From Diplonema japonicum (taxonomy: Eukaryota > Protista > Euglenozoa: Diplonemea): 64,000 nt of DNA. The position numbers and the translations under genes are program-made. Positions 11,525 to 55,358 of the stretch are shown piece after piece; position 1 is the stretch's first letter; each line of letters begins with the position of its first letter. The stretch covers positions 248,001 to 312,000 of the forward strand of contig OZ025666.1 in NCBI GenBank assembly GCA_964019335.1. The letters run 5' to 3'. The notes beneath the pieces are model-generated. The model searched no databases and was not told the DNA's origin. It saw only the letters and a list, made by a program, of their open reading frames with translations.

Positions 11525-11638
11525 GAAAAAAAAAGATATTTAGTGTTTTTCAAAAAAAAAAAGGAAACTCTTATCATTGAATGGCTAACTGCACACTACA
11601 CTGCACAACATCCCAGGTCTCATAAGTGTCCTTTAAAA

Positions 11639-12202
11639 ATGGTTCGCAAGTACCGTGAGTTCGGCAAGGTCTACAAGAACCCCCGTCGTCCGTTCGAGAA
11701 GGAGAGGTTGGACAAGGAGCTGAAGCTTGTTGGTGAGTACGGTCTCAGGTGCAAGCGTGAGGTTTGGAGGGTTGCCCTTACCCTTGCCAAGATGAGGAAG
11801 TGTGCCCGTACCCTTCTGACCCTTGACGCCGACTCTGAGCGTCGTGTCCTTGAGGGTGGTGCCCTTCTCAGGAGGTGCCTCAGGTACGGTCTCCTTGACC
11901 AGGAGCACATGAAGCTCGACTACGTGCTTGGTCTGACCCTTCAGGACTTCTTGGAGCGCCGTCTCCAGACCCTTGTGTTCAAGCACGGTCTTGCCAAGTC
12001 CATCCACCACGCCCGTGTGATGATCCGTCAGCGTCACATCTGCGTTGGCAAGCAGATGGTCACTGTCCCCTCTTTCTGGGTCAGGACTGACAGCGAGAAG
12101 CACATTGACCTCGCCCCCACCTCTTCCCTTGGTGCTGGTGGCCCCGGCCGTGTGAAGCGTTCCAGGAAGACCAGCGGCGGCGGTGGTGGTGACGAGGAAT
12201 AG
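11639..12202 (+). CDS. RPS9: 40S ribosomal protein S9 (uS4), copy 3
   Basis: Same 187-aa protein as copy 1. Confidence 0.97.
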
Positions 12203-12296
12203 ATCCATGGCTAAAGGACACAATGATAGCTGAATCATTTATTTTACCAAGCATTTACACCGCAAACCTTACTACAGATAAACTACAACATCAAAA

Positions 12297-12860
12297 ATGG
12301 TTCGCAAGTACCGTGAGTTCGGCAAGGTCTACAAGAACCCCCGTCGTCCGTTCGAGAAGGAGAGGTTGGACAAGGAGCTGAAGCTTGTTGGTGAGTACGG
12401 TCTCAGGTGCAAGCGTGAGGTTTGGAGGGTTGCCCTTACCCTTGCCAAGATGAGGAAGTGTGCCCGTACCCTTCTGACCCTTGACGCCGACTCTGAGCGT
12501 CGTGTCCTCGAGGGTGGTGCCCTTCTCAGGAGGTGCCTCAGGTACGGTCTCCTTGACCAGGAGCACATGAAGCTCGACTACGTGCTTGGTCTGACCCTTC
12601 AGGACTTCTTGGAGCGCCGTCTCCAGACCCTTGTGTTCAAGCACGGTCTTGCCAAGTCCATCCACCACGCCCGTGTGATGATCCGTCAGCGTCACATCTG
12701 CGTTGGCAAGCAGATGGTCACCGTCCCCTCTTTCTGGGTCAGGACTGACAGCGAGAAGCACATTGACCTCGCCCCCACCTCTTCCCTTGGTGCTGGTGGC
12801 CCCGGCCGTGTGAAGCGTTCCAGGAAGACCAGCGGCGGTGGTGGTGGTGACGAGGAATAG
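12297..12860 (+). CDS. RPS9: 40S ribosomal protein S9 (uS4), copy 4
   Basis: Same 187-aa protein as copy 1. Confidence 0.97.
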
Positions 12861-12954
12861 ATGTTGGTTTAATGAACTTTTTTAAGGGATCAATTTATTT
12901 TACTGCAAAACTTCACCCACATTAGTCCCGCACAGGTAATACAACAAAGGCAAA

Positions 12955-26086: not shown

Positions 26087-26157
26087 AATACGAGTTTCTT
26101 TTTTATTAACCCTCCCCCCCTTTGAAGGTAGCATATTGAGTTATCGGGGACTTGTGC

Positions 26158-26255
26158 ATGATGACAAACCATGTTTAGTGTAGTGCGCATCTGACACCCC
26201 TCTTGCAGGTGGTGGTTGAGAATACATACATCGGTCTAGACTCGTTTATGACTGA
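26158..26255 (+). ncRNA. Box C/D snoRNA CD1 (copies 27374-27471, 33446-33543, 53028-53125, 54034-54132)
   Basis: C box ATGATGA; D' CTGA preceded by TAGTGTAGTGCGC, antisense to SSU GCGC(A/G)CUACACU; terminal D CTGA. Confidence 0.85.
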
Positions 26256-26365
26256 CCTTTCCCTGCTTTGTTTTATTTGGCCAAACATGTCGAGAAGCAT
26301 CCTTTCCTTCCCGTTGTTTCCCAGTTAGTGAAAAGAAGCGGAAAGAGGGAGGCTGAGTGGCTTTT

Positions 26366-26396
<31 letters not shown>

Positions 26397-26485
26397 GCAT
26401 TTAAGGCAAGGGAATGAAGTAGTTAGTCTTGTTTATCCCTAGTCATTGTGGGGCAAATCTGCTTGTGAAGATGGGTAAAAAAGAA

Positions 26486-26557
26486 TACCGGAAACACTCC
26501 ACGGTTGCCCTCTTCCTTTAAGTGGAGGTGATGACCACCAGACCCCTGGTTAGAGTC
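26486..26557 (+). ncRNA. AGA-box H/ACA-like hairpin RNA HA1 (other full copies 26778, 27267, 27633, 52551, 52924, 53438, 53927; variant 33771; truncated 33406)
   Basis: ACCRG/CTGGT basal stem, CTCCAC/GTGGAG upper stem. All copies end at TAGA, after which the flanks mostly diverge. Target not identified. Confidence 0.65.
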
Positions 26558-26588
26558 TTTGAGAAGGTCGATGTGGCGTGCATCGTGC

Positions 26589-26652
26589 ATCGTCCCTCGC
26601 TATGCCTGCTGAGCGGACATGCCCAGGAGAGTACGTAAGGGGCGAGAGATGT
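26589..26652 (+). ncRNA. AGA-box H/ACA-like RNA HA4 (copies 33213, 33838)
   Basis: TCGTCCCT/AGGGGCGA stem followed by GAGA; 5' pocket CGCTATG antisense to LSU CAUAGCG (in CAAGCGUUCAUAGCG). Confidence 0.65.
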
Positions 26653-26676
26653 GCTGTGGGCGATGCTCTGGTATGA

Positions 26677-26741
26677 TCATCCCGCGGTGCCTGTCGGGCT
26701 GCATTTCGTGCTTGAGAGTGTACGTATGGGATGGGAGAGGG
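26677..26741 (+). ncRNA. AGA-box H/ACA-like RNA HA5 (copies 33301; 52468 with small deletion)
   Basis: CATCCCG/TGGGATG basal stem, TCGGGC/GCTTGA upper stem, AGA 2 nt after the stem. Confidence 0.55.
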
Positions 26742-26876
26742 AGGGCCGGTGTGGGAGATTAAATATAGATAAGATTATACCAGAAACACTCCACGGTTGC
26801 CCTCTTCCCTTAAGTGGAGGTGATGACCACCAGACCCCTGGTTAGATGTTTTCCCCATGTGGGCACAGAAAGACAG

Positions 26877-26944
26877 AAGCATCCCATTCCTTCACGTTGT
26901 TTCCCAGTTAGTGAAAAGAAGCGGAAAGAGGGAGGCTGAGACAG
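26877..26944 (+). ncRNA. AGA-box H/ACA-like RNA HA2 (copies 26296 with mutated box, 27512, 27733, 33938, 53166, 53538)
   Basis: AGCATCCC/GGGAGGCT stem, TTCAC/GTGAA upper stem, terminal GAGA; conservation between copies ends at the box. Confidence 0.6.
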
Positions 26945-26989
26945 CTGACTGAATGTACAGCATAGTTCGTTTGATTTCTTTCCTTCGGA

Positions 26990-27090
26990 ATGATGAGAAA
27001 CAAAATTCATAGATCTCGTTCGTCTGAGCAGACTTCCATTTTTTTGGAGGGCTGCGTGTGACTGATTAGAATTTTCGGCCTTCAAGCTGA
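26990..27090 (+). ncRNA. Box C/D snoRNA CD2, double guide (copies 33078 with altered C box, 33619, 53650; 5' stub at 53271)
   Basis: D' guide AGATCTCGTTCGT is antisense to SSU ACGAACGAGA. D guide TTCGGCCTTCAA is antisense to LSU UUGAAGGCCGAA. Confidence 0.9.
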
Positions 27091-27141
27091 CCTTATTTTT
27101 GCTGCCCCTCTCACTCTGTTGGCTGCAGGCCTTCACACCCT

Positions 27142-27227
27142 GTGATGAGAACAACGACATCAACACTCTCGTTCTTCTGATTTTAGTTATGAAGACAGAT
27201 GTTCCGTTCATGCTTCTGCAATGCTGA
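27142..27227 (+). ncRNA. Box C/D snoRNA CD3, double guide (copies 52809-52894, 53802-53887)
   Basis: D' guide CACTCTCGTTCTT is antisense to SSU AAGAACG(A)AGU; the +5 rule gives the yeast Am974-equivalent. D guide TTCTGCAAT is antisense to 5.8S AUUGCAGAA; the +5 rule gives the Gm75-equivalent. Confidence 0.9.
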
Positions 27228-27837
27228 GGATATGCGACATAAATAAAATAAAGTTCTTTTTCCAAATACCAGAAACACTCCACGGTTGCCCTCTTCCCTT
27301 AAGTGGAGGTGATGACCACCAGACCCCTGGTTAGAGGTGAACGAGATATCGAGAGTCATCAGGGACTTGTGGCATGATGACAAACCATATTTAGTGTAGT
27401 GCGCATCTGACACCCCTCTTGCAGGTGGTGGTTGAGAATACATACATCGGTCTAGACTCGTTTATGACTGACCTTTCCCTGCTTTGTTTTATTTGGCCAA
27501 ACATGTCGAGAAGCATCCTTTCCTTCCCGTTGTTTCTCTGTTAGTGAAAAGAAGCGGAAAGAGGGAGGCTGAGATGTCCGGAAGAAGATTGGCGTGTTTT
27601 GTTGATCCCTTGTGAGCAAAGGAAAAAAGAAATACCAGAAACACTCCACGGTAGCCCTCTTCCCTTAAGTGGAGGTGATGACCACCAGACCCCTGGTTAG
27701 ATGTTTTCCCCATGTGGGCACAGAAAGACAGAAACATCCCATTCCTTCACGTTGTTTCCCAGTTAGTGAAAAGAAGCGGAAAGAGGGAGGCTGAGACACC
27801 CGCATTGGAGGGACAGCAGCAGCGGCAGTATTCTGCA

Positions 27838-27907
27838 AACCTTCACCATTACCCCCCAGCGTAGCTTTTTGAAGTGTGCTGGAGGGCAAGTTTGGAAGGT
27901 GAGAGTG
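27838..27907 (+). ncRNA. AGA-box H/ACA-like RNA HA6 (copy 34043-34112)
   Basis: ACCTTC/GAAGGT and CCAGCGT/GTGCTGG stems, then AGA. Pockets CCATT and AAGTTTG bracket LSU CAAACUU-UA-AAUGG. Confidence 0.75.
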
Positions 27908-27963
27908 GAAGAGAAGCAGCTGAGGTCTTTTGTGTGGTGGTGAGGAGGGGCAAGAAAACCGAC

Positions 27964-28036
27964 ATGATGACCACATCATATCCACTAAATTTTCTGATGA
28001 AGAGTCTTAAAATCTACAATGTCATAGTTACTCTGA
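27964..28036 (+). ncRNA. Box C/D snoRNA CD4, snR63-like (copy 34169-34241)
   Basis: D guide GTCATAGTTACT is a perfect 12-nt antisense to LSU helix 69 AGUAACUAUGAC; the +5 rule gives the yeast Am2256-equivalent. Confidence 0.9.
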
Positions 28037-28121
28037 TCTCTCCTTTCTTGTCTTTTCCCAACTAGAACTAGTCACTTTTTTTTCACCCAACAAACACCAA
28101 CTCTTTTTTTTTTTTTTTTGA

Positions 28122-28221
28122 ATGATGAAAATATATTCTGTCAGTGCTGGCACCAGAGCAGAGCTGCGGAGGGGTAGCACCCTTTGTGACCATGAGCACA
28201 TTTTTTATTATCCGCTGCTGA
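28122..28221 (+). ncRNA. Box C/D snoRNA CD5 (copy 34326-34425)
   Basis: C box ATGATGA; GTGCTGGCACCAGA is a 14-nt antisense to SSU UCUGGUGCCAGCAC, followed by D'-like CAGA; terminal CTGA. Confidence 0.85.
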
Positions 28222-28274
28222 AATGAAAAGAAAGCTTACCCCACGAATACCTGGCAACAACAACCACAACCCAC

Positions 28275-28343
28275 CCCCCGCATTTAAGGCAAGGGAATGA
28301 AGCATTTAGTCTTGTTTATCCCTAGTCATTGTGGGGCAGATAT
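28275..28343 (+). ncRNA. AGA-box H/ACA-like RNA HA3 (copies 26393 with AAA box, 34485, 53343)
   Basis: CCCCGCA/TGTGGGG stem followed by AGA. Pockets TTTAAGG and GTCAT bracket LSU AUGAC-UC-UCUUAAG (helix 69, yeast Psi2264-equivalent). Confidence 0.75.
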
Positions 28344-28371
28344 GGCTTCAGGAGGGCAGCAGCACAGCCGT

Positions 28372-28438
28372 GTGATGACCAACACGAGGCATTTTTGCGA
28401 CGATTATAAAAACGTATTCTACCTTAACTTACCGCTGA
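28372..28438 (+). ncRNA. Box C/D snoRNA CD6, snR13-like (single copy in window)
   Basis: C box GTGATGA; ACGAGGCATTT antisense to LSU AAAUGCCUCGU; extra tract CTACCTTAA antisense to the adjacent UUAAGGUAG; D box CTGA. Confidence 0.8.
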
Positions 28439-28526
28439 CGTTTGTGTTGCTGTGCTTGGGCCCCTTTTCTTGATTTCCCTCTATTTTTTCTTTCCTCACC
28501 ACCCCCTTTTTTTTGCACCTGTCCCA

Positions 28527-30199: not shown

Positions 30200-31695
30200 A
30201 TGCGCGTCATGATGGGCCTATGTGTGGCCGCACTGGCTGTTTCAGCCATGGCGGACGACGACAAGAAGAAAATCGAGGGTCCCGTTATCGGGATCGATCT
30301 TGGGACGACCTACTCCGTGGTGGGTGTGTGGCAGAACGGGCAGGTGGAGATCATCTCCAACGAGATGGGTAACCGTATCACCCCCTCCGTCGTCGCCTTC
30401 ACTGAGACCGAGCGTCTCATCGGTGACGGTGCCAAGAACCAGATGTCCCAGAACCCCGACAACACCATCTACACCGTGAAGCGTCTTATCGGTCGCAAGT
30501 ACACCGACAAGGTATGTTTAGTTATTGTGATCAATCAAAATCACACAATCACAGTCCGTGCAAAGCGACAAGAAGCTTCTCTCCTTCAGGATCGTGTCTG
30601 GTGCCGATGGGCAGCCCAACGTGAAGGTGCACTACAAGGGTGAGGACAAGCAGTACACTGCGGAGGAGATCTCTGCGATGGTGTTGACGAAGATGAAGGA
30701 CATCGCTGAGGAGTTCCTCGGGAAGAGCCTGAAGAACGCTGTGGTGACTGTGCCCGCCTACTTCAACGACGCTCAGCGTCAGTCGACGAAGGACGCTGGT
30801 ACGATCGCCGGTTTGAACGTTGTGCGTATCATCAACGAGCCCACGGCCGCAGCCATCGCCTACGGGCTGGACAAGAGGGACGAGGGTGAGAAGAACATCC
30901 TTGTCTTCGACCTTGGTGGTGGTACCTTCGATGTGTCGCTTCTCCAGATCGACGACGGTTTCTTCGAGGTGATCGCCACCAACGGTGACACCCACTTGGG
31001 TGGTGAGGACTTCGACAACAGGATGGTATGTTAAAGGGGGAAAGCAACATGAAAATAAACCAACCATGTCCCTCACAGGTGAAGCACTTCCTGAACGTGA
31101 TCCAGAAGAAGCACGGAAAGGACCTGTCGAAGAACCAGAGGTCCCTCGCCCGTTTGAGGAAGGCCTGTGAGTCGGCGAAGCGTCAGCTCTCCTCGCAGCC
31201 CGAGGCCCGTGTTGAGGTGGACGGGTTGGACGAGGGTCTGGACTTCTCCGAGAAGCTTACCCGTGCCAAGTTCGAGGAGCTGAACATGGACCTGTTCAAG
31301 GGTACCCTGAACCCCGTGAAGGCTGTTCTGGATGACTCCAAGCTGAAGAAGACCGACGTTGACGAGATCGTGCTTGTCGGTGGGTCCACCCGTATCCCCA
31401 AGGTCCAGAACCTCATCAAGGACTTCTTCAACGGGAAGGAGCCCAACAAGGGGATCAACCCTGACGAGTCTGTTGCCTACGGTGCCGCTGTTCAGGGGGC
31501 CGTGATGAGCGGCGAGAGCGAGCTTCAGTCGAAGGTGCTTCTCGTTGACGTGATCCCCCTGTCCATGGGTATCGAGACCGTGGGAGGAGTCATGACCAAG
31601 CTGATCGAGCGTAACACTCCCATCCCCGCCAAGAAGGCCCAGACCTTCTCCACCTACCAGGACAACCAGCCCGGTGTGAACATCCAGGTGTGGAA

Positions 31696-31728
<33 letters not shown>

Positions 31729-32325
31729 ACCCCAAACAACCAGGTCTTCGAGGGTGAGCGTTCGATGACGAAGGACAACAGGCTTCTCGGGAAGTTCGAG
31801 CTGTCGGGGATCCCTCCCGCCCCCCGTGGTGTGCCGCAGATCGAGGTGTCGTTCGACGTTGACGCGAACGGGATCCTCACCGTGGGTGCGGAGGACAAGG
31901 GCTCTGGCAGCAAGGAGGCGATCACGATCACCAACGACAAGGGAAGGCTCAGCGAGGAGGAGATCGAGAAGATGGTTCGCGAGGCCGAGGAGTTCCAGGA
32001 GGAGGACAAGAAGCTGAAGGAGAGGGTGGAGGCGAAGAACGCCCTCGAGTCGACCGCCTACAACCTGAAGAACCAGGTGAACGACGACGAGAAGCTCGGC
32101 GGGAAGCTCGACGAGGACGACAAGACGGCGATCGAGGAGGCGGTGAAGGAGGCTCTTGACTGGTTGGACGAGAACCCGTCGGCCGACAAGGAGGAGTACG
32201 ACGAGCAGCTCCAGAGCCTCCAGAGCATCACCAACCCCATCGTCTCCAAGGTCTACCAGCAGGGCGCCACTGAGGGCGGTGCTGGTGGTGAGGACGAGGA
32301 CGCGGGCGACTCTGACGAGCTCTGA
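30200..32325 (+). CDS. BiP: ER luminal HSP70 BiP/GRP78, copy 1; 4 exons
   Basis: Signal peptide; [32 protein letters not shown]; C-terminal SDEL. Introns 30512-30554, 31026-31078, 31688-31743. Confidence 0.96.
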
Positions 32326-32679
32326 GCGGTTTAGTGACAACTACATACGAGGTAAAAGCCTATTTCCGGAACAAAAGTAGAAGCAGCGAAAAAAAAAAAA
32401 AAACTAAAACTCTTTTTAATTGATGCTTACTTTTTTATTTTTATTTTCCCTTTTTTTTTTCCCTTTTTTGGTTCTCCCTTCCTACTCGAAGGTATGGGAT
32501 ATCTCTTCGGATGGACAGATATCTGCTGCCTCGGGTAACTTAAATGTATGCAAAGCAGAACTTTGCATCGTTTAGCCTTGTGAGTTGTGATTGTTATTTT
32601 TTTTTTTGGTGTTTCAATGAAAATGTTTACCGTACTTTGCGTTGCTTGATATTCATCAAAATAGATAATTAATCTCAAA

Positions 32680-35600
32680 ATGCGCGTCATGATGGGCCTA
32701 TGTGTGGCCGCACTGGCTGTTTCAGCCATGGCGGACGACGACAAGAAGAAAATCGAGGGTCCCGTTATCGGGATCGATCTTGGGACGACCTACTCCGTGG
32801 TGGGTGTGTGGCAGAACGGGCAGGTGGAGATCATCTCCAACGAGATGGGTAACCGTATCACCCCCTCCGTCGTCGCCTTCACTGAGACCGAGCGTCTCAT
32901 CGGTGACGGTGCCAAGAACCAGATGTCCCAGAACCCCGACAACACCATCTACACCGTGAAGCGTCTTATCGGTCGCAAGTACACCGACAAGGTATGTTTT
33001 TTTGGAAGAAAAAAAAAAGAGGTTCTTGTTTTCTTTCTTTTCCGGTTTTTGTTTCCTGCTCAAGGAGTGCCTGTTGCAGGATGAGAAACAAAATTCATAG
33101 ATCTCGTTCGTCTGAGCAGACTTCCATTTTTTTGGAGGGCTGCGTGTGACTGATTAGAATTTTCGGCCTTCAAGCTGACAAACAGTCCAAATGGGGTCCT
33201 TTTCTTTCGTGCATCGTCCCTCGCTATGCCTGCTGAGCGGACATGCCCAGGAGAGTACGTAAGGGGCGAGAGATGTGCTGTGGGCGATGCTCTGGTATGA
33301 TCATCCCGCGGTGCCTGTCGGGCTGCATTTCGTGCTTGAGAGTGTACGTATGGGATGGGAGAGGGAGGGCCGGTGTGGGAGATTAAATAAAGTATTAAAT
33401 AAGATACCGGAACACTCCACGGCTGAGAAGCAGAGAACTTGTGGCATGATGACAAACCATGTTTAGTGTAGTGCGCATCTGACACCCCTCTTGCAGGTGG
33501 TGGTTGAGAATACATACATCGGTCTAGACTCGTTTATGACTGACCTTTCTACCTGCTTTGCTTCAAAAGAAGATCACCGCTTCCTTGTTCCCAGTTAGTG
33601 AAGTCACTTTCCTTCGGAATGATGAGAAATAAAATTCATAGATCTCGTTCGTCTGAGCAGACTTCCATTTTTTGGAAGGCTACGTGTGACTGATAAGAAT
33701 TTTCGGCCTTCAAGCTGACCTTATTGCCGGCCGTTTTTCCCAGGAGAACAGAGAAGCCTTAGTTCAAGCATACCATTACAACGCCCGCCCACCCGGCATT
33801 AGGGATGACCACAAGACCCTGGTTAGAGTCTTTATGCATCGTCCCTCGCTATGCCTGCTGAGCGGACATGCCCAGGAGAGTACGTAAGGGGCGAGAGATG
33901 TGCTGTGGGCGATGTTCTGAGGTGGTCAGCAGACAGAAGCATCCCATTCCTTCACGTTGTTTCCCAGTTAGTGAAAAGAAGCGGAAAGAGGGAGGCTGAG
34001 ACACCCGCATTGGAGGGACAGCAGCAGCGGCAGTATTCTGCAAACCTTCACCATTACCCCCCAGCGTAGCTTTTTGAAGTGTGCTGGAGGGCAAGTTTGG
34101 AAGGTGAGAGTGGAAGAGAAGCAGCTGAGGTCTTTTGTGTGGTGGTGAGGAGGGGCAAGAAAACCGACATGATGACCACATCATATCCACTAAATTTTCT
34201 GATGAAGAGTCTTAAAATCTACAATGTCATAGTTACTCTGATCTCTCCTTTCTTGTCTTTTCCCAACTAGAACTAGTCACTTTTTTTTCACCCAACAAAC
34301 ACCAACTCTTTTTTTTTTTTTTTGAATGATGAAAATATATTCTGTCAGTGCTGGCACCAGAGCAGAGCTGCGGAGGGGTAGCACCCTTTGTGACCATGAG
34401 CACATTTTTTATTATCCGCTGCTGAAAAGAAAAGAAGTGAAAAGAAAGTTAATCCCACGAATACCTGGCAACAACCCCCCCACCCCCCGCATTTAAGGCA
34501 AGGGAATGAAGCATTTAGTCTTGTTTATCCCTAGTCATTGTGGGGTAGATACAACGAAAATGCGACAAGACTGTTGTGTGCTTTTTTTTTTATAACGCGT
34601 CACGCGCATGATGATCAGAGAATACAATCCAATGACTGCTGTTTCCATGAGAAGCCATCTTCGGTGACATAAATTGTTTCTTAAAAATCTTCAAAACTGA
34701 CATACGACTATTGTTAACATTTTAATTCTGATGGCGGTGGTGGCTTCTCGCTGCTCGGCTGTTTCTGCGCAGTTATCCTGCTCTCCCAAACCTGCCGGCA
34801 CTCTATTCCATCTGACTTGTGCTTGAGCCTTCTCCCACATGATGATTAGCTTGCTTTTTCTACTTCGGATGGTGCCTGCACCCTGACGATCAAATTGTAT
34901 CACAATCACAGTCCGTGCAAAGCGACAAGAAGCTTCTCTCCTTCAGGATCGTGTCTGGTGCCGATGGGCAGCCCAACGTGAAGGTGCACTACAAGGGTGA
35001 GGACAAGCAGTACACTGCGGAGGAGATCTCTGCGATGGTGTTGACGAAGATGAAGGACATCGCTGAGGAGTTCCTCGGGAAGAGCCTGAAGAACGCTGTG
35101 GTGACTGTGCCCGCCTACTTCAACGACGCTCAGCGTCAGTCGACGAAGGACGCTGGTACGATCGCCGGTTTGAACGTTGTGCGTATCATCAACGAGCCCA
35201 CGGCCGCAGCCATCGCCTACGGGCTGGACAAGAGGGACGAGGGTGAGAAGAACATCCTTGTCTTCGACCTTGGTGGTGGTACCTTCGATGTGTCGCTTCT
35301 CCAGATCGACGACGGTTTCTTCGAGGTGATCGCCACCAACGGTGACACCCACTTGGGTGGTGAGGACTTCGACAACAGGATGGTATGTTAAAGGGGGAAA
35401 GCAACATGAAAATAAACCAACCATGTCCCTCACAGGTGAAGCACTTCCTGAACGTGATCCAGAAGAAGCACGGAAAGGACCTGTCGAAGAACCAGAGGTC
35501 CCTCGCCCGTTTGAGGAAGGCCTGTGAGTCGGCGAAGCGTCAGCTCTCCTCGCAGCCCGAGGCCCGTGTTGAGGTGGACGGGTTGGACGAGGGTCTGGAC

Positions 35601-36052
35601 TTCTCCGAGAAGCTTACCCGTGCCAAGTTCGAGGAGCTGAACATGGACCTGTTCAAGGGTACCCTGAACCCCGTGAAGGCTGTTCTGGATGACTCCAAGC
35701 TGAAGAAGACCGACGTTGACGAGATCGTGCTTGTCGGTGGGTCCACCCGTATCCCCAAGGTCCAGAACCTCATCAAGGACTTCTTCAACGGGAAGGAGCC
35801 CAACAAGGGGATCAACCCTGACGAGTCTGTTGCCTACGGTGCCGCTGTTCAGGGGGCCGTGATGAGCGGCGAGAGCGAGCTTCAGTCGAAGGTGCTTCTC
35901 GTTGACGTGATCCCCCTGTCCATGGGTATCGAGACCGTGGGAGGAGTCATGACCAAGCTGATCGAGCGTAACACTCCCATCCCCGCCAAGAAGGCCCAGA
36001 CCTTCTCCACCTACCAGGACAACCAGCCCGGTGTGAACATCCAGGTGTGGAA

Positions 36053-36087
<35 letters not shown>

Positions 36088-36684
36088 ACCCCAAACAACC
36101 AGGTCTTCGAGGGTGAGCGTTCGATGACGAAGGACAACAGGCTTCTCGGGAAGTTCGAGCTGTCGGGGATCCCTCCCGCCCCCCGTGGTGTGCCGCAGAT
36201 CGAGGTGTCGTTCGACGTTGACGCGAACGGGATCCTCACCGTGGGTGCGGAGGACAAGGGCTCTGGCAGCAAGGAGGCGATCACGATCACCAACGACAAG
36301 GGAAGGCTCAGCGAGGAGGAGATCGAGAAGATGGTTCGCGAGGCCGAGGAGTTCCAGGAGGAGGACAAGAAGCTGAAGGAGAGGGTGGAGGCGAAGAACG
36401 CCCTCGAGTCGACCGCCTACAACCTGAAGAACCAGGTGAACGACGACGAGAAGCTCGGCGGGAAGCTCGACGAGGACGACAAGACGGCGATCGAGGAGGC
36501 GGTGAAGGAGGCTCTTGACTGGTTGGACGAGAACCCGTCGGCCGACAAGGAGGAGTACGACGAGCAGCTCCAGAGCCTCCAGAGCATCACCAACCCCATC
36601 GTCTCCAAGGTCTACCAGCAGGGCGCCACTGAGGGCGGTGCTGGTGGTGAGGACGAGGACGCGGGCGACTCTGACGAGCTCTGA
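32680..36684 (+). CDS. BiP: ER luminal HSP70 BiP/GRP78, copy 2; intron 1 expanded to 1920 nt
   Basis: Exons appear identical to copy 1 by eye. Introns 32992-34911, 35383-35435, 36045-36102. Confidence 0.94.
33078..34700 (+). ncRNA. snoRNA cluster B (inside BiP copy 2 intron 1): CD2', HA4, HA5, CD1, CD2, HA1-variant, HA4, HA2, HA6, CD4, CD5, HA3, CD7
   Basis: Same modules as cluster A, in the sense orientation of the host gene. Confidence 0.9.
34608..34700 (+). ncRNA. Box C/D snoRNA CD7 (copies 52658-52748, 54207-54298)
   Basis: C box ATGATGA, D box CTGA. ACAATCCAATG is antisense to LSU CGUUGGAUUGU (helix 92/A-loop region). The sequence just before the D box varies between copies. Confidence 0.75.
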
Positions 36685-46310: not shown

Positions 46311-46519
46311 TGCAACGGGCGCAACTACCTTTTCTCATTTACACATTTAGAGTGGCAATACTTTCTTTTTTTTTCTTCTTTTTGTTGGTTTGTTTTATAC
46401 GGGTTCTGGGAACAAAGTATACACACACACAGGCCCTGTAGGGGGAAAGGGGTTGTAGAGGGAAGTGGGGTGTTCTTTTAACAGACCACCTCCCCCACCC
46501 TTCACACCGTACTTATTAC

Positions 46520-49500
46520 ATGCATCTTAAGCTTATTCTTGTGTCGGCGGCACTGATAACAACAGCTGGGGGAGTGTGTCCATGTTTTCATGATTGCGGG
46601 GACGGGCGGTTCTACGAGAAAATGGAAGGGGGGTGCTTTAGGTACAACCATGCCGGGGAGGGGTGGGAAGAAGCACAGAGGGCATGCGGGCTAGATGGAG
46701 GAATGCTTGCTGAGAACGAACGGTTCCTGGAGCAGTACTCTGCACTGATTGACACGTGGGTGGGCGCACGCTACACCGCGGGAATGCGGTGGAACAGCAG
46801 CGGTGCGCTTGTCAGCAGCGCCTTTAACCCTACTGGGGGAAAAGATCTTGACTGCGGGTTTCTACTCCAGGGCACTGTGTACCCTTGGAGCGACTGTACT
46901 GATCCCCTCGCCTTTCTTTGTGAAAAGCGGCAGATCCAATTCACGCCGATGGCTCACACCTTTACCGCCGCGGGCGGGCAAGGGCCTTCCTTTGGCAGCT
47001 CCAACCCGAACATCACAATCTCCACAACAACCACACCAACACCACGGCTGCTTTATAAGCTGTCGCAGGACTCGACGTGCCCGCCGCAGCAAGCTTCGTC
47101 TTTAACTGAAGCTGACGGCACCGACATGCTGCGCCTCCCAAAGCTCTCTGTAGGTGTGACGTACACCCTGTGCTGGTATGGTCCTGTGATAGTAGAAGGC
47201 CTTGGCACTGTAGAGATGGAAGCAGCTCCTATCACCGTTACGACACAGCCCCTCCCTACGCTCGATGATGCCACCCATGCCATCCCCGTAGGTGTCCTGC
47301 CCGCCTCTGTGACGTTTGAGGGTTCGAACCTCATGAAGGACGCGATGGTCGCCTTGTTCACTGGCACCAACTGCGACGGGACTCTAATCGCAACCTCCGA
47401 CACACCGCAGCTAACTATTCCCGACGGGACATCCGCTGGCACCTACTACTGCTGCGTAGCTGCGTGGGGGGGCCTCGATGACACAGGGTTTGTGCCCACG
47501 TACACCCCCACGTCTGCTGTTGTCACTGTCATTCCGGAGCCTGTCTTCACAGCAGCTAACATGTACGTGCCTTTGGCCGTTGGATTGAGCGGAGGGGTTC
47601 TGACGCTGACTGGCAGCAACGTCGCACAGAAATACATCTGGGTCTCCTTGCGGCCAGTCCCCACATGCGGGGGATCGTACCCGACTGTTGTGCTGAGTAA
47701 CGAAGGCACTTTCGGGATACCCACGGATGGCTCTGTTTTAACTGGGATGCCTCTCTACGTGTGTTACACGACGTCGCAGTCGAACACCGCGCACAGTGAT
47801 GTGTTCCAGTCGACAGGCGTGACAGTGACCATCACACCTGAACCCGTCATCACGCTTTCTGATGATGAAGTGATGGCTTCGTATGCTGAAGGGCTTGTGG
47901 GGCCTGCCGTCACAATCAACGGGCGAAACCTTGTGACTCGAGAGTCATCGTCCATGCTATATGCCCTCACGGGGATCGACAGGAAGTGCACAGCTAATGT
48001 TTCTGTTGGCTCAGAATTGACATCTACCAGCCTGTCTGCGTCGGGGCGTGTGGCGTTGGGTCTCACCGGAGAGTACTACGTGTGTGTAGGGAGTATGCCC
48101 TCCCAAAGCTCAGAGCCGCTGCAAGTGTTCGAGACAGGCCTTCGGGTGTCTATCTACCCTCCACCTTCCTTTGAGGAAGCTACTTTGTGGACCTCCAGCC
48201 AACCAGCAGGTCTTCCTGCTGGCAACTACACTGACCGCCCTAGCGGCATGCACTACGCTCTGGCTACTGCCCAAGACTGCTCATCACCTGAGTACATTTC
48301 CACCAATGGTGCACTCCCATCTGTCCCTGAGCCTGACACCCTTACGCAACTGACTCTGTGTTGGACAGTCAGCAGCACACCCGCTGTCTGGAACACGACA
48401 CTGGTGACGTACATGTATCTACCCGTGCCGACAGTGCTCCCTCAGCCGTCTGTAGTGACCGTGCCTGATGAGGTGTACTTTGGCACGAAGCTGCAGGTCT
48501 CTGGGAAGTATTTCCGGAGCGTCACGGTAAGATATGTAGAAGAGAGCTCCAGCTGTTTGGTTTCGAACAGTTTCAAAAATGTGCAAGAGGAGTGCAGACC
48601 GTACTGTGACCAGTTTGACTCGCTCATCCCTGCAGGGCTGGCGGCGGCAAGCTCTTACAGGGTGTGTGTGGGCAGCGAGGACACGGGCATTGTTGTGCGT
48701 GTGACGCCGTTCCCTACAATCGAGGCAGAATTCCACACCGTCGGTTTAGGGGAGTACCACAAGGGGTTCACAGTACCTGTAACGGGGGAAAATATTTTGT
48801 TTGCGTTTGTCAAGTTCGTGACGGACGACTGTCAGCGGGATGGCGAGGTGGCTGTCCTCTCAACGGTGGTTCGCTTCAACGAGACAGACCAGAGGCTAGC
48901 GCCAGGCACACGATACATCATGTGCATTGCTACAGGAAGAGCTGATGTTCCCGAGTCTATCTGGGTTAGTTCTGGAGTGCTGTTGGAAGTGAAGGGCATC
49001 CCAGTGTTCAATAGCACAGTATTTGCGCCGCAGCCAGATGAGATATGGGGCAGCAGCAACGCGGTAACAGCAAGCTTAACGGGCACACACATAAACCAAC
49101 TGTTGTGGTTCGCATATTGCAAAAGCAGTTCCGATCCTTGTGCCAACTGCACTGACGTGCAGCAGTCGTCTTCCGGCAGCGTGGTGTTACCGACAGATGT
49201 GGTCTCCACAACAGTTGCAGAGGTGCTGCACATCTGCTGGGCTCCTGTGGACGATGCCGCCCTTGCTGCCACTTCAGCAACGCTTGCGTCTCCTGTAGCG
49301 AATCCTTTTCCTCCTCAGGACATCAGTCTAACGTACGGTGAGTCCCTCAAAGGCGTGCAGATGACGCCAGCCATCAATGTTGCAGGACTTCACGCCGCAT
49401 TCAGTAGCACCAAGGGCACCACGCTCTGGAAGCCCCTCAATAGTGGCAAATACAGTGGTGAGCTACCAGCTAGCCAGGCCGGCGTTTACCACACACTGCT

Positions 49501-52015
49501 CCTTAGCTATAGCAGCAGCCCTTCCACTTCCTCAGCTGTGATCTTAACCACAGGTGTAGGTGTGACATGGATGGGTCCTCCTACGTTCACCCCACAAGCA
49601 CTCCAGGTGTCTCTAGCTCAGCTTGTTTCAGGCACTGCAGCTATGGATTTCGAAGGCAGTTTCATAAGCAGGGGTGTGTATGTCAGGATAGGCTGTGGTG
49701 GCAGCCCTTCCCCGTTGGGTCTCCCTGCTGTGCCGATCGAAGATGATTCTGCTGCTCTACCTATGCCTGTGTTGGGTGTGTTCGCTGGTGGAGTCTTCGA
49801 CATATGCTGGGCGCCCTATGATCCTGTTTTGAGTGCACCTGACTGGACGGCGGGAGGTGAAACGGGTGTCACCGTTGCACTGCAAGCTGTACCAGTGTTT
49901 GGCAATGCGAAGATCACTATCTCGCGACACGAGCTGCTTTCTGCTACACCTGTCACACCCAGCCTCAGTGGGAGTGGGTTGACAACGCCGTTGGCTGTGC
50001 ACGTCTGCAGCAAGGCCAGCGTCTCGTATGCGTTCACTGCTGTGAATGCCACGTACGGCACCTTTACGGTGAGCAACGCGCAGGACCTGTTCGATGAGCC
50101 CGTGACGAACGCACCACTGTGCTGGTCCCTTGTAGGTGCTGACACGGTGTATGATATAGCGGGTGGGAGCATGAGCACAATGGGCGTGCCTGGTTTCAGG
50201 GCTGTTAGCGACACTGTTACTGTGCGCAACGTGGTGGCGGGATACCCTCTGCTTGTCCTGCAGGGTGTTGTAGATGACGACCTGTTCTTTGAGATAAGGA
50301 GCGGATCGTGCACAGGCGTTAAAGTTCTGAACGGGACGCACCAAGATCTCCTCCTTACGGAGGATGTGGACCTCCACGACGCCACCACTTTGGCTGCTTG
50401 CTGGAGTGTCGTAGACACTGATGGTACAGTTCTCACTGGCCCCTTTGCAGTATCAAACTGGGAAGTTACTCTTGAAGGTTTTCCTATCGTGACTGCCATC
50501 AACGATGCGTCCCTCCCTCTGTCCGATCCTTTCACCATCACTAACAATGTTGTCATCAACATCAAAGGCACCAACCTTGACAATGCCTTCTTCGCGGTTG
50601 CCACATCTTGCAACACTGTTGTGCAGCCCACCTCTTTCCCTATCGACCTGCGCGGGTTGAGTGGCGTGTACTCGCTCTGCATCTCGATATCAGGCTCTGT
50701 TGGCACTTTCAACCAGCTTGTTGTTTTGGACATACTTGTGCCAACAACAGCTGCCCCAACAGACGCCCCAGCAACGCCGTTTCCCGACACAGAGGCGCCT
50801 GCAACATCCGCTCCGCCAACTCTGACGCCTACAGACACACCGCCTGGTGTTACTAAGGCACCTGATACAGATGCACCTGACACGGACGCTCCGAAAACAC
50901 CGTCACCGGATACCAGGGCCCCAGACACGGATGCACCTGACACACAGGCACCCGACACCCTAGCTCCTGACACAGACGCCCCATACACAGACGCCCCAGA
51001 CACGATGGAGCCGATGTCTAACGCGCCTAATGCCACAAACCCCCCAGACACTGATGCTCCTGATACCGATGCTCCTGACACTGATGCCCCAGACACCGAT
51101 GCCCCCGATACGGACGCACCAGACACTAACCCACCTTACACAGATGCACCTGACACCGATGTCCCTGAGACAGATGCTCCGGATACGGATGCGCCTGACA
51201 CTAATGTGACAGCACCGGGGGACACCATGTCGCCGATGACGGACGCTCCTGCGACAGACACACCCAGCCCTGATACGGAGACACCGTGCAAGAGCTTGGC
51301 GGCGCTGGGAGAGGTTTCTGCATATGAATGCTTTGGCTCGTTGAATGAGGCGGGGAGGCTTGTAGGGTGTCTGCGGACAGGGGGCGTCAACACAGGATGC
51401 CTGGCGACATATGATAGGTGTGTGGAGAACCTCGTAGGGGAGTGCCCACCGAAGGGGGTGGCGTACAAAGAGAAGTCACAACCGCTGAGCGTTCTGTTAG
51501 GCCTGGACAACGATGACTTCCAACTGGCGGTGCATGGCGGACTATTCACAGCGGCAGTGGCGGCAGAGATGAGGATTGTGCCGTGGCTTGTAAATGTGAC
51601 ACGGGTGGAGCAGGGGTCGGTACTGGTGACATTTGAGGTCAGCGGTCCTGGGGCAGACGTGGCGAAGGATGAACTGCAGAAGAAGCTTGATGCAGGAGTG
51701 AACCCCTTCACAGCATACAGCTGGCAGATCCTCTCAAGCAACAACACGAACAGTACTGCACCTGCAGATCATTCTTCGGGTGAAGAGGTTCCCGTGATCC
51801 TCTTAATACTGTGTGCTGTGGCCTTCATGATTTGCTTGATTCTTCTTGTATGCATCACAATGACAAAGACTTACATGCCACTCCCGCCCATCCCCCCCGA
51901 ACTCGCCATGGAAGAGGGTCGAACCACCATAGCTGACTTAGTGTCCTCGCCCTCCCCGACCGCATCTCAGCCGCAAGCTTCGAAGCCCCTACCCCACCCT
52001 CCTGCTTCACCTTAG
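46520..52015 (+). CDS. Large type I surface protein: C-type lectin domain, repeated beta-rich modules, TDAP mucin-like stalk, TM helix, Pro-rich tail
   Basis: Signal peptide; CFRY..WEEAQRAC..GGMLA, TWVG, WSDC...FLCEK (CTLD); recurring Y.VC/LCW modules; TM VILLILCAVAFMICLILLVCI. Confidence 0.8.
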   Translation: MHLKLILVSAALITTAGGVCPCFHDCGDGRFYEKMEGGCFRYNHAGEGWEEAQRACGLDGGMLAENERFLEQYSALIDTWVGARYTAGMRWNSSGALVSSAFNPTGGKDLDCGFLLQGTVYPWSDCTDPLAFLCEKRQIQFTPMAHTFTAAGGQGPSFGSSNPNITISTTTTPTPRLLYKLSQDSTCPPQQASSLTEADGTDMLRLPKLSVGVTYTLCWYGPVIVEGLGTVEMEAAPITVTTQPLPTLDDATHAIPVGVLPASVTFEGSNLMKDAMVALFTGTNCDGTLIATSDTPQLTIPDGTSAGTYYCCVAAWGGLDDTGFVPTYTPTSAVVTVIPEPVFTAANMYVPLAVGLSGGVLTLTGSNVAQKYIWVSLRPVPTCGGSYPTVVLSNEGTFGIPTDGSVLTGMPLYVCYTTSQSNTAHSDVFQSTGVTVTITPEPVITLSDDEVMASYAEGLVGPAVTINGRNLVTRESSSMLYALTGIDRKCTANVSVGSELTSTSLSASGRVALGLTGEYYVCVGSMPSQSSEPLQVFETGLRVSIYPPPSFEEATLWTSSQPAGLPAGNYTDRPSGMHYALATAQDCSSPEYISTNGALPSVPEPDTLTQLTLCWTVSSTPAVWNTTLVTYMYLPVPTVLPQPSVVTVPDEVYFGTKLQVSGKYFRSVTVRYVEESSSCLVSNSFKNVQEECRPYCDQFDSLIPAGLAAASSYRVCVGSEDTGIVVRVTPFPTIEAEFHTVGLGEYHKGFTVPVTGENILFAFVKFVTDDCQRDGEVAVLSTVVRFNETDQRLAPGTRYIMCIATGRADVPESIWVSSGVLLEVKGIPVFNSTVFAPQPDEIWGSSNAVTASLTGTHINQLLWFAYCKSSSDPCANCTDVQQSSSGSVVLPTDVVSTTVAEVLHICWAPVDDAALAATSATLASPVANPFPPQDISLTYGESLKGVQMTPAINVAGLHAAFSSTKGTTLWKPLNSGKYSGELPASQAGVYHTLLLSYSSSPSTSSAVILTTGVGVTWMGPPTFTPQALQVSLAQLVSGTAAMDFEGSFISRGVYVRIGCGGSPSPLGLPAVPIEDDSAALPMPVLGVFAGGVFDICWAPYDPVLSAPDWTAGGETGVTVALQAVPVFGNAKITISRHELLSATPVTPSLSGSGLTTPLAVHVCSKASVSYAFTAVNATYGTFTVSNAQDLFDEPVTNAPLCWSLVGADTVYDIAGGSMSTMGVPGFRAVSDTVTVRNVVAGYPLLVLQGVVDDDLFFEIRSGSCTGVKVLNGTHQDLLLTEDVDLHDATTLAACWSVVDTDGTVLTGPFAVSNWEVTLEGFPIVTAINDASLPLSDPFTITNNVVINIKGTNLDNAFFAVATSCNTVVQPTSFPIDLRGLSGVYSLCISISGSVGTFNQLVVLDILVPTTAAPTDAPATPFPDTEAPATSAPPTLTPTDTPPGVTKAPDTDAPDTDAPKTPSPDTRAPDTDAPDTQAPDTLAPDTDAPYTDAPDTMEPMSNAPNATNPPDTDAPDTDAPDTDAPDTDAPDTDAPDTNPPYTDAPDTDVPETDAPDTDAPDTNVTAPGDTMSPMTDAPATDTPSPDTETPCKSLAALGEVSAYECFGSLNEAGRLVGCLRTGGVNTGCLATYDRCVENLVGECPPKGVAYKEKSQPLSVLLGLDNDDFQLAVHGGLFTAAVAAEMRIVPWLVNVTRVEQGSVLVTFEVSGPGADVAKDELQKKLDAGVNPFTAYSWQILSSNNTNSTAPADHSSGEEVPVILLILCAVAFMICLILLVCITMTKTYMPLPPIPPELAMEEGRTTIADLVSSPSPTASQPQASKPLPHPPASP
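50743..51283 (+). repeat. Coding 15-bp (PDTDA) degenerate tandem repeat
   Basis: Many PDTDA/PxTxA pentapeptides with synonymous divergence between units. Confidence 0.9.
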
Positions 52016-52467
52016 AATTTAGAATTTAGAGAACCCATCCCCTTTTCTCATTCTCTCCAAAGAGAAATTGCAGCTTTAGCTACTATATTATTCCCGTTTT
52101 TTTACGTAGAGTTTTTGTCCTTTTTAAAAACTATTCTGGTGCTGTTTGTTGTGCAGGACTGCAAGAAGATTGCAGGAAAGAAGAAAAAGCTGCCCCTCCC
52201 CAGAAGGGAGGTAGGCACGGGTCGTTGCTCACCCACTTCGTTTCCCTATGTAATTTTCTTTTTCTTTTTTTCTTTTTTCGTTAGCCCCCATCGCCTCTTC
52301 CCTTCCCATTTTTCTTCTTCTTTTTTCTTTTTGCCCTTCTAGATTTGGCTAGAGTTATTATTCCTTGTTCTCTTTTTATACCCTGCTACGACGGACATGG
52401 ATTTGTTTGGAAATCCAAAAAAAAAAAAAAAAAAACGATTTTCATTTTAACAAAGATTACTAGTATG

Positions 52468-54298
52468 ACATCCCGCGGTGCCTGTCGGCATTTCGTGCTT
52501 GAGAGTGTACGTATGGGATGGGAGAGGGAGGGCCTGAAATACACACGAGATACCAGAAACACTCCACGGTTGCCCTCTTCCCTTAAGTGGAGGTGATGAC
52601 CACCAGACCCCTGGTTAGAATGTTGTGCATTTTTAGGTTTCATGTTGTCACACGCGCATGATGATCAGAGAATACAATCCAATGACTGCTGTTTCCATGA
52701 GAAGCCATCTTCGGTGACATTAATTGTTTCTTTAAATTCTAAAACTGACATAGTTGAGGGTTTTTTCACGTTGGCCAGGGTATGAGGACCAAGCAGTGGA
52801 ACGCGCCTGTGATGAGAACAACGACATCAACACTCTCGTTCTTCTGATTTTAGTTATGAAGACAGATGTTCCGTTCATGCTTCTGCAATGCTGAGGATAT
52901 GTGACAATGATCTTTTTCCCAAATACCAGAAACACTCCACGGTTGCCCTCTTCCCTTAAGTGGAGGTGATGACCACCAGACCCCTGGTTAGAAGTGAACA
53001 ATGAGTAGTGAGAAGCAGATTTAAGGCATGATGACAAACCATGTTTAGTGTAGTGCGCATCTGACACCCCTCTTGCAGGTGGTGGTTGAGAATACATACA
53101 TCGGTCTAGACTCGTTTATGACTGACCTTTCCCTGCTTTGTTTTATTTGGCCAAACATGTCGAGAAGCATCCTTTCCTTCACGTTGTTTCCCAGTTAGTG
53201 AAAAGAAGCGGAAAGAGGGAGGCTGAGATGGAGCATGCAGCCGAAGCACTGTGGTCTGTCATCTGTGGCTTCGGAATGATGAGAAACTCCGTCCTTTCCC
53301 TTTCTCGCTTTTTAACTCTCCACAAAACAAGAATAACCCACCCCCCGCATTTAAGGCAAGGGAATGAAGCATTTAGTCTTGTTTATCCCTAGTCATTGTG
53401 GGGTAGATCCGCAAGCACATCAAGACCGAGAATATAATACCGGAAACACTCCACGGTTGCCCTCTTCCCTTAAGTGGAGGTGATGACCACCAGACCCCTG
53501 GTTAGATGTTTTCCCCATGTGGGCACAGAAAGACAGAAGCATCCCATTCCTTCACGTTGTTTCCCAGTTAGTGAAAAGAAGCGGAAAGAGGGAGGCTGAG
53601 ACAGCTGACTGAATGTACAGCATAGTTCGTTTGATTTCTTTCCTTCGGAATGATGAGAAACAAAATTCATAGATCTCGTTCGTCTGAGCAGACTTCCATT
53701 TTTTTGGAGGGCTGCGTGTGACTGATTAGAATTTTCGGCCTTCAAGCTGACCTTATTTTTGCTGCCCCTCTCACTCTGTTGGCTGCAGGCCTTCACACCC
53801 TGTGATGAGAACAACGACATCAACACTCTCGTTCTTCTGATTTTAGTTATGAAGACAGATGTTCCGTTCATGCTTCTGCAATGCTGAGGATATGCGACAT
53901 AAATAAAATAAAGTTCTTTTTCCAAATACCAGAAACACTCCACGGTTGCCCTCTTCCCTTAAGTGGAGGTGATGACCACCAGACCCCTGGTTAGAGGTGA
54001 ACGAGATATCGAGAGTCATCAGGGACTTGTGGCATGATGACAAACCATGTTTAGTGTAGTGCGCATCTGACACCCCTCTTGCAGGTGGTGGTTGAGAATA
54101 CATACATCGGTCTAGACTCGTTTATCAACTGACCTTTCCAGGAGTTTCCCGCCTGCTTTATACTTTTTCAAGCTGTGTCCTAGCCCCCATACTCCCACCG
54201 CTCCGCATGATGATCAGAGAATACAATCCAATGACTGCTGTTTCCATGAGAAGCCATCTTCGGTGACATAAATTGTTTCTTAAAAATTTCAAAACTGA
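52468..54298 (+). ncRNA. snoRNA cluster C (intergenic): HA5', HA1, CD7, CD3, HA1, CD1, HA2, CD2-stub, HA3, HA1, HA2, CD2, CD3, HA1, CD1, CD7
   Basis: Same modules as clusters A and B; 53437-54125 is nearly identical to 26777-27465. Confidence 0.9.
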
Positions 54299-54482
54299 CA
54301 AACTGTGGTTTTCCATGTTTTCTTCAAAGAGTCTTCAGCTGAAGTCATTATTTTCTTTTGCACTCCCATTCTCATTCGTTTCAAAGGCCCTGTCCTGTGT
54401 TAGATTACAGCTGCTTTGTCTTCGAACCTCTTCCACACAGCACAATCTTCCTTTCTTCTTATTCTTCTCCTTCTTCAAGAAA

Positions 54483-55358
54483 ATGACGCGTTCCACTATG
54501 ATGCTCGCGATGCTGCCTGTTGTGGCGTCTCTGCAGATGGAGATGAGCTGCCTGATGGACGTGGGGATGGGGGCTTACGGGCTGATCGACGCTGGTCTGG
54601 GGATCAACAGCGCTGTGTCCTCGTGCGGGGATGCGGGGAAGAAGGGGCAGTGCACCGCGGACATCGGGAAGGTGGTGTCTGGTCTGGGGAGCACGAGCGC
54701 GTACATCTCGATGGCGGTGGGGGACTGCGGGGGCGAGGGGAACCAGTGCGCGGTGGACGTGTCGCAGGCGGTGTCGTCCCTCGGGAAGGCTGTGCAGGAT
54801 GCGGGGAAGGCTGAGCAGTCGTGCAGGCAGAACGCGTCGAGGGCCCTGTGCGCGTCGGATGTGCTGGCGGCTGGGTCGAAGGTGGCGCTCGCGGCGAGCC
54901 AGGTGCAGGCGGCGAAGGGGAGCTGCGCGACCGTGGCGGAGAAGAAGGTGGCGGATTTGAAGAACTTCAACATGAACTGCATCATGGACGTGGCGATGGC
55001 CGCCTTCGGGCTGGTGAACGGGGGCCTCGCCGTGAACGCGGCGGTGGCGGACTGCGGGGCGGAGGGGAGCTCCGGGGCCTGCGCTGAGGACATCGGGAAG
55101 ATGGTGTCTGGGCTGGGGTCCGCGAGCGCGCAGATCAGCGCGGCTGTCGGGGACTGCGGCGGGGCGACGCAGCAGTGCTCCGTCGACGTGTCGAAGGCGG
55201 TGGCCTCCTTCGGGAAGGCGACCGAGGAGGCAGGGAAGGCGGCACAGGTCTGCGGCGACAAGACCCAGTCCGCCCTCTGCGTCTCCTACCTCCTCGCCTC
55301 CGGCTCAGGCATCTCCCTCGCCGTCAGCGACATCCAGGCGGCCTCCAAGTCTTGCTAG
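54483..55358 (+). CDS. Secreted Cys/Ala/Gly-rich protein with two ~130-aa tandem repeats
   Basis: Signal peptide MTRSTMMLAMLPVVAS; repeats M.C.MDV.M...GL...GL..N.AV..CG with conserved cysteines; very GC-rich. Confidence 0.75.
   Translation: MTRSTMMLAMLPVVASLQMEMSCLMDVGMGAYGLIDAGLGINSAVSSCGDAGKKGQCTADIGKVVSGLGSTSAYISMAVGDCGGEGNQCAVDVSQAVSSLGKAVQDAGKAEQSCRQNASRALCASDVLAAGSKVALAASQVQAAKGSCATVAEKKVADLKNFNMNCIMDVAMAAFGLVNGGLAVNAAVADCGAEGSSGACAEDIGKMVSGLGSASAQISAAVGDCGGATQQCSVDVSKAVASFGKATEEAGKAAQVCGDKTQSALCVSYLLASGSGISLAVSDIQAASKSC

Follow-up and report, generated by a model that had tools for sequence, protein, structure and literature searches.

A cluster of snoRNA-like genes in the predicted first intron of one of two tandem BiP genes in Diplonema japonicum

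The tandem BiP genes and their first introns

The window, meaning the whole stretch of 64,000 nt analysed here, carries two tandem BiP genes that differ greatly in the length of intron 1:

30200..32325, plus strand: BiP copy 1, with four exons (30200-30511, 30555-31025, 31079-31687 and 31744-32325)
30512-30554, plus strand: intron 1 of copy 1, 43 nt
32680..36684, plus strand: BiP copy 2, host of the cluster, with exons 32680-32991, 34912-35382, 35436-36044 and 36103-36684
32992..34911, plus strand: predicted intron 1 of copy 2 (GTATG...CAG), 1920 nt

Comparison of the spliced exon models revealed that the coding sequences of the two copies are identical over 1974 nt, and either product has 657 residues, no internal stop and the C-terminus SDEL. 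An Hsp70 sequence that clusters with BiP, in addition to this ER-retention C-terminus, identifies the protein as BiP/GRP78. The spliced protein shares 87-92% identity with Diplonema BiP proteins; in a tree of 18 rows it lies within a diplonemid clade, grouped with D. japonicum BiP (92% identity, support 100/99). Exon 3 is 91% identical to the luminal-binding protein of Diplonema papillatum, a species that also has tandem BiP, with nine cluster members over two contigs. All introns of both copies are in phase 0. Intron 2 (53 nt) has the same sequence in the two copies, and intron 3 (56 and 58 nt) differs solely in the length of an A run, which, apart from this run, confirms the preliminary description of matching exons and introns 2 and 3 beside an intron 1 of 43 versus 1920 nt. 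It was also right in placing the cluster in one BiP paralog only, between the canonical splice sites of copy 2. Intron 3 (31688-31743 and 36045-36102) has a GTGTG donor and consists mostly of a single long A run.

The two versions of intron 1 both start with GTATGTTT and end with CACAATCACAG, so that the copies agree over the first 8 and the last 11 nt; the last ~25 nt are homologous, yet diverged. Reading through the long intron leads to an in-frame stop. Its splice sites agree with the pattern given for D. japonicum in the available text of PMC12621601, namely a GTATG donor, an A-rich 3′ end and CAG; the same source reports a median intron of 41 nt, though its authors warn that long introns could have escaped detection. 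Among four introns tested, the long one alone has a YTRAY motif within 50 nt of the 3′ splice site. This sole motif (34883-34887), the predicted branch-point motif, takes in box D of unit G at a distance of 25 nt from the splice site.

Of 30 ORFs scanned with Pfam on the plus strand alone, 12 gave matches (E up to 0.001), in keeping with the description of D. papillatum gene arrays as unidirectional and co-transcribed in the part of PMC10161547 available (section 9). The window also holds four near-identical tandem copies of a ribosomal protein S4/S9 gene (10187-12862), direct and inverted nested repeats of ~100 nt (291-730), an ORF of 1857 residues (46442-52015) that has 15-nt tandem repeats at 50852-51221 and no Pfam match, and, likewise without a Pfam match, a GC-rich ORF (54484-55358) that encodes cysteines and a likely signal peptide and has an internal duplication of 270 nt (71%).

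Four of 21 public sequencing runs (X1, X2, X6 and X12) were compared with the window over 32300-34280. In X1, a leader-like sequence, which we take to be the spliced leader, is joined to the 5′ UTR of copy 1, poly(A) follows 32617, and exon 1 continues into exon 2, features from which the run is judged to be RNA. This poly(A) site lies ~47 nt before the AG at 32663-32664, a possible leader acceptor for copy 2. The spliced junction between exons 1 and 2 is present in X1 and X12, in exons common to both copies; it is spliced in some BiP copy. As to the junction 32991^34912, put forward earlier as a check, the exon 1-exon 2 sequence was seen, but it could not be assigned to copy 2, because the exons are shared and the leader joined in X1 is that of copy 1. 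The spliced contig of X12 starts at 32671, where the leaders of the copies diverge, and weakly hints at two leaders; it may belong to another paralog or organism, since the run is labelled “DNA?” and the contig has a variant base.

Two X2 contigs, covering 32970-33103 (depth 503) and 33360-33460 (depth 406), match the intron start and a unique spacer with no mismatch, and the 5′ start of the long intron exists in this one public run. In X2, a unique intergenic contig has a depth of 448 and the shared exon 1 one of 986, depth being no copy number, and the contig that joins the exon end to the long intron holds 22 exon letters, under the 31-letter bridging rule. A 398-nt contig of X6 fits 32303-32700, from the end of copy 1 to the start of copy 2, and supports the tandem arrangement. 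It is very improbable that repeated cluster sequence was misjoined into copy 2 during assembly: near-identical repeats make up a mosaic here, and only two intron-specific pieces are confirmed, in one of the four runs, possibly related to the source of the window, but the X2 contigs are error-free at the 5′ junction and the unique spacer at single-copy-like depth, the X6 contig fits the stretch between the two genes, several hundred intron bases occur nowhere else in the window, and the 3′ end of the intron is a diverged homologue of that of copy 1.

Loose ends in X2 at 32999 fit the intron of copy 1 mixed with a third intron-1 type, and all four runs have variant bases at 32778 and 32833-32838; the variants and the third intron-1 start suggest further BiP paralogs elsewhere in the genome. 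The exon-1 contig of X6 continues unbranched into another intron, which could reflect strain polymorphism or graph simplification. The intron-specific spacers and the stretch 32618-32670 are absent from X1 and X12, X6 lacks depth over 33037-33237, and the bin 33774-33840, with a degenerate unit of family M that is thus unconfirmed, is empty in all four runs; these are gaps in cover and were not counted as evidence.

The units of the long intron

From 5′ to 3′, the long intron contains the following features:

33032..33079, plus strand: pyrimidine tract (26 of 30) followed by CAG, a candidate internal acceptor (trans or cis)
33078..33178, plus strand: C/D unit A1, with an altered box C (AGGATGA), a D′ guide to SSU and a D guide to LSU
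33212..33276, plus strand: AGA-box hairpin J1, AGA at 33271
33299..33365, plus strand: AGA-box hairpin K, AGA at 33360, fold z -1.74
33405..33424, plus strand: 5′ fragment of AGA family M, from self-comparison of the window
33446..33543, plus strand: C/D unit B, with both guides directed at SSU, their sites 18 nt apart
33619..33718, plus strand: C/D unit A2, boxes intact, with both guides of A1
33770..33830, plus strand: degenerate family-M unit, 3′ half retained, pocket lost
33838..33901, plus strand: AGA-box hairpin J2, AGA at 33896, from fold and AGA scan
33938..34004, plus strand: AGA-box hairpin N, AGA at 33999, z -0.80, failed the AGA scan
34043..34112, plus strand: AGA-box hairpin O, AGA at 34107, z -3.37
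34169..34241, plus strand: C/D unit C, D guide with 12 nt antisense to LSU
34326..34425, plus strand: C/D unit E, internal 14-nt guide antisense to SSU (partly circular)
34484..34552, plus strand: AGA-box hairpin P, AGA at 34547, z -3.06
34608..34700, plus strand: C/D unit F, weak internal SSU guide, further copies only in the downstream cluster
34728..34815, plus strand: tentative C/D unit Q, without canonical box C, D guide score 12, no copy elsewhere in the window
34839..34886, plus strand: short C/D unit G, 48 nt, 15-nt LSU guide, no copy elsewhere in the window

All 13 modules reported earlier were recovered, as seven C/D units (A1, B, A2, C, E, F and G) and six AGA hairpins (J1, K, J2, N, O and P), in addition to three broken or tentative units, namely the family-M fragment, the degenerate M unit and unit Q. 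Every unit lies in sense with BiP, and the minus strand of the intron has no C box. Units of the form RTGATGA...CTGA number six in the 1920-nt intron versus eight in the 57,838 nt outside the three clusters of the window. Several sense snoRNA-like genes lie between a single pair of splice sites, as in an intronic polycistronic snoRNA cluster.

Six of the C/D units have a canonical box C (RUGAUGA) and box D (CUGA), A1 has one substitution, and Q is without a canonical box C. An Rfam search of the whole window found no significant snoRNA family, the best matches in the clusters having E above 1. For the guide targets, 116 loci were fetched by a motif that we take to be typical of euglenozoan SSU, and Rfam confirmed SSU, 5.8S and LSU, whole or partial, on the 12 of these that were checked. 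The targets used were locus L015, in which two motifs presumably resemble diplonemid primers, and the 3′ LSU of L005, both being rRNA of related euglenozoans and not of this organism itself. L001, from a scan of viral contigs, proved not to be rRNA. The euglenozoan-type SSU motif was present in sixteen contigs (L002-L017) of bacterial genome records, seven of which were checked by Rfam and are eukaryotic rDNA, likely contamination.

C/D methylation guides are defined by 10-21 nt antisense to rRNA at D or D′. Against this related euglenozoan rRNA, 8 of the 12 intron guides adjacent to a CTGA box (six distinct) score at least 12, and for none of the eight did more than 5 of 200 shuffles attain the same score. 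The background was 6 of 300 positions, and the sense-strand control scored at most 10.5 in 15 guides. The four guides that failed this rRNA antisense test are the D′ guide of C and the D guides of E, F and G. The target of unit C is GGAGUA[A]CUAUGAC, a site that presumably corresponds to yeast Am2256. The internal matches of E and G are 14-15 nt long, whereas that of F is weak; the 14-nt SSU match of E is partly circular, because it coincides in part with the motif by which the loci had been selected. The internal guide of G includes three G-U pairs, and its LSU site neighbors that of the D guide of A. A scan of viral contigs gave four matches, rejected as chance matches without box C, and another such scan gave none.

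In form, the AGA units resemble the class described in PMC2613932 (in the part available), a single hairpin followed by an AGA box, which is also defined by Cbf5-dependent stability. In the AGA scan J1, K, J2, O and P pass and N does not; the AGA sites that pass number 8 of 51 for the intron, compared to 9 of 262 for the non-coding controls and 9 of 39 for the coding control. Units O and P have fold z values close to -3, yet the AGA scan does not separate the units from the coding control. In the search for a bipartite pocket around an rRNA uridine, none of the seven intron AGA units clearly beat the control, and intergenic family M alone did so (13 bp versus 7.5). Families N and P have compensatory changes at 0 of 17 and 0 of 20 pairs, their divergence being too small to tell. 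Altogether, it is well supported by the rRNA-antisense guides that the C/D units are snoRNA-like methylation guides, which bears out the preliminary description for this class, whereas the scan and pocket results leave it plausible that the AGA units are H/ACA-like guide RNAs.

Intergenic clusters and the origin of the insert

Two intergenic clusters in the window resemble the intronic one:

26140..28440, plus strand: upstream intergenic snoRNA-like cluster, the likely donor of most units
52460..54300, plus strand: downstream intergenic snoRNA-like cluster, with the same families

Self-comparison of the window showed that 1417 of the 1920 intron nt (74%) have copies elsewhere in it, the upstream cluster covering 1301 nt (68%). 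The extra sequence had been described as a sense-oriented mosaic of the upstream modules; the orientation holds, whereas the upstream cluster cannot account for all of it, since F recurs in the downstream cluster only and G and Q have no copy in the rest of the window. A 621-nt intron block, spacers included, is 96% identical to 27726-28342, and the unit orders J-K-M and M-J are kept between the intron and the intergenic clusters. The copied spacers, the kept orders and this block point to DNA-level copying or conversion among the clusters. Retroposition was rejected, as it would hardly account for copied spacers and an insert that begins with a pyrimidine tract and not with a leader.

The intergenic clusters are themselves similar, 53428-54139 being 99% identical to 26768-27478. 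They contain eight intact copies of AGA family M (in 26484-27700 and 52550-53995), with a 13-bp pocket around an SSU uridine. In addition, they contain C/D unit H (27142-27227, 52809-52894 and 53802-53887), with guides to SSU (score 14) and 5.8S (15.5), and C/D unit I (28372-28438), with an LSU guide scoring 12; both H and I are absent from the intron.

Compared to the closest intergenic blocks, the intron shows 8 differences over 872 nt of units and 17 over 384 nt of spacer (p=0.0001, or p=0.03 when substitutions alone are counted). With constraint assumed for the intergenic copies alone, the contrast has p=0.03 for all events and p=0.31 for substitutions, and in view of the latter it is no demonstration of function of the intron copies. 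It is quite doubtful that the cluster is a mere passenger, that is, a real insertion whose host copy is poorly processed or whose snoRNA copies fail to mature and are drifting. Such a fate would suit the mutated box C of A1, the broken family M, the five differences in the 100 nt of A2, the redundancy of 74% of the intron in the window, and a box D of G that coincides with the predicted branch point, 25 nt before the 3′ splice site. However, the changes in A2 spare both boxes and guides, the units J1, K, B, J2, O, C and E are identical to the nearest copies between genes while the spacers do differ, and the coding sequence of copy 2 is intact.

Our best reading is that a mixed snoRNA cluster of trypanosome type was copied as DNA into the intron of a co-transcribed gene. 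A gain by copy 2 is favoured, because D. japonicum introns are short (PMC12621601, as far as its available text goes) and other types of intron 1 occur in the species. Damage to units gives no direction and was rejected as proof of one, because intergenic copies are damaged too, as in a P unit at 26390 without AGA and a lone box C at 53276. It is quite improbable that the cluster is instead the ancestral intron 1 of BiP, lost from copy 1 and other paralogs, with which the intergenic clusters exchange units. Units G and Q without a copy elsewhere in the window, intron-1 ends that differ between copies with identical exons, and fragments in all three clusters would fit this older state; by contrast, X2 has at least two other intron-1 starts, one of them fitting copy 1, family M is broken in both halves in the intron while its eight intergenic copies are intact, and introns in D. 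japonicum are short.

As to timing, the identical exons around diverged intron-1 ends suggest ongoing exon homogenisation around an older difference, and the copying is not necessarily a recent event; such homogenisation of the two BiP genes would have spared the inside of intron 1. The earlier view of the locus as a snapshot of relocation was thus too strong, given diverged intron-1 ends beside 1974 nt of identical coding sequence.

Expression of the cluster and related systems

Resuming the gain by copy 2, we propose, with about an even chance of being right, that its ~13 snoRNA-like genes, likely copied as DNA from the intergenic clusters, are likely released from the excised intron as rRNA guides. 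The BiP locus would be transcribed within a polycistron, and copy 2 would receive a spliced leader and then be cis-spliced at 32991^34912, with CTGAC of unit G as the predicted branch point. The intron would be cleaved between its units, each then being trimmed back to the boxes in the manner of the intergenic clusters, and its copies would mostly add dosage to guides also made nearby, by constrained drift and not by ER-stress regulation.

An alternative fate of the transcript centers on the tract at 33032-33079, which the preliminary description had passed over, as it had the overlap of box D of G with the branch-point motif. If it served as a leader acceptor, part or all of the copy 2 transcript would be a capped snoRNA precursor and not BiP mRNA, which we consider unlikely. 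The tract, with 26 of 30 pyrimidines, is like those leading the intergenic clusters (26 and 29) and the BiP copies (27 and 29), compared to only 21-49% pyrimidine in the three short, A-rich cis introns; similarity to the other clusters begins at 33080, directly after the CAG, and cis use of this CAG would lead to a stop after six codons. Moreover, snoRNA precursors in trypanosomes are trans-spliced and polyadenylated (PMC6562600 and PMC3273796, available parts). Nevertheless, a leader joined at 33080 was not found among the loose ends listed in the runs, copy 2 keeps its donor, its 3′ CAG and all its exons intact, and use of this AG would cut box C of A1. It is rather improbable that both outcomes arise from one pre-mRNA of copy 2, giving either BiP mRNA plus an intronic snoRNA polycistron or, by leader addition at 33079, a precursor of trypanosome type, with the snoRNP on G competing with splicing and setting the balance. 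If true, this switch would place a single gene midway between the kinetoplastid and the intronic mode of snoRNA expression.

Returning to release from the excised intron, the suggested coupling of guide production to ER-chaperone expression found no support, because diplonemid genes, according to the part of PMC10161547 available (section 9), are co-transcribed and not primarily regulated at initiation, and because most of the guides are redundant, with 74% of the intron having copies in the window. The locus would be closer to “constrained drift”, an established model of snoRNA mobility in which snoRNAs relocate wherever expression suffices, including introns of broadly expressed genes (PMC3511168, available part); that case concerns a single snoRNA, whereas here a multi-gene block moved, apparently as DNA.

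In cluster type, the locus is trypanosomatid-like, and in location it is like the intronic clusters of plants, Chlamydomonas and Ostreococcus tauri (PMC7671301, available part). Similar to the trypanosomatid clusters (PMC2613932, PMC6562600 and PMC3273796, available parts), it mixes C/D and single-hairpin AGA-box units in repeated clusters, with a second location nearby and a polycistronic context. Those clusters are described as trans-spliced, polyadenylated polycistronic precursors (PMC6562600, PMC3273796), consistent with the earlier statement that kinetoplastid clusters differ from the intronic type, whereas here a protein gene houses one of the clusters in an intron predicted to be cis-spliced. 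With the plant and algal clusters it shares several snoRNAs in one intron of a housekeeping gene, which implies cutting between units; in contrast to them, it belongs to another supergroup, has AGA single hairpins and a trans-splicing host, and sits in one of two identical tandem paralogs. The clustered snoRNA genes of Euglena gracilis (Moore and Russell 2012, cited in PMC7671301) are likewise euglenozoan, polycistronic and present as multiple isoforms, and an intronic location is not mentioned where they are cited.

The preliminary description had further stated that hsp70-family introns host snoRNAs in vertebrates and in plants. For plants, a snoRNA cluster is said to lie in a rice hsp70 gene, which our literature search did not find. 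The vertebrate part stands, U14 (SNORD14) residing in introns of hsc70 (PMC7277114, available part), which is also an hsp70-family host. That case involves a cytosolic paralog with three copies of one family, whereas here a single intron of an ER paralog holds about ten families; because Rfam found no U14 match in the window, the likeness is an analogy, and descent from the vertebrate arrangement was rejected on this ground and on the different paralog.

A literature search with limited reach into subscription papers turned up no account of modification-guide snoRNAs in diplonemids or of any euglenozoan cluster inside an intron. In the available part of PMC11613528, snoRNAs are mentioned only in connection with PAP1, and the main text and seven supplement files of PMC10161547 do not contain “snoRNA”.

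Since intronic snoRNA clusters are widespread among other eukaryotes, the arrangement as such is less surprising. The D. japonicum locus nevertheless has a built-in control, with two exon-identical genes with and without the cluster, and guide copies in the intron that can be told from the intergenic ones by single bases (33630, 33677, 33682 and 33695 in A2, 33939 in N and 34546 in P). It makes testable the processing of intronic snoRNAs in a trans-splicing organism, competition between cis- and trans-splicing, and snoRNA relocation as drift.
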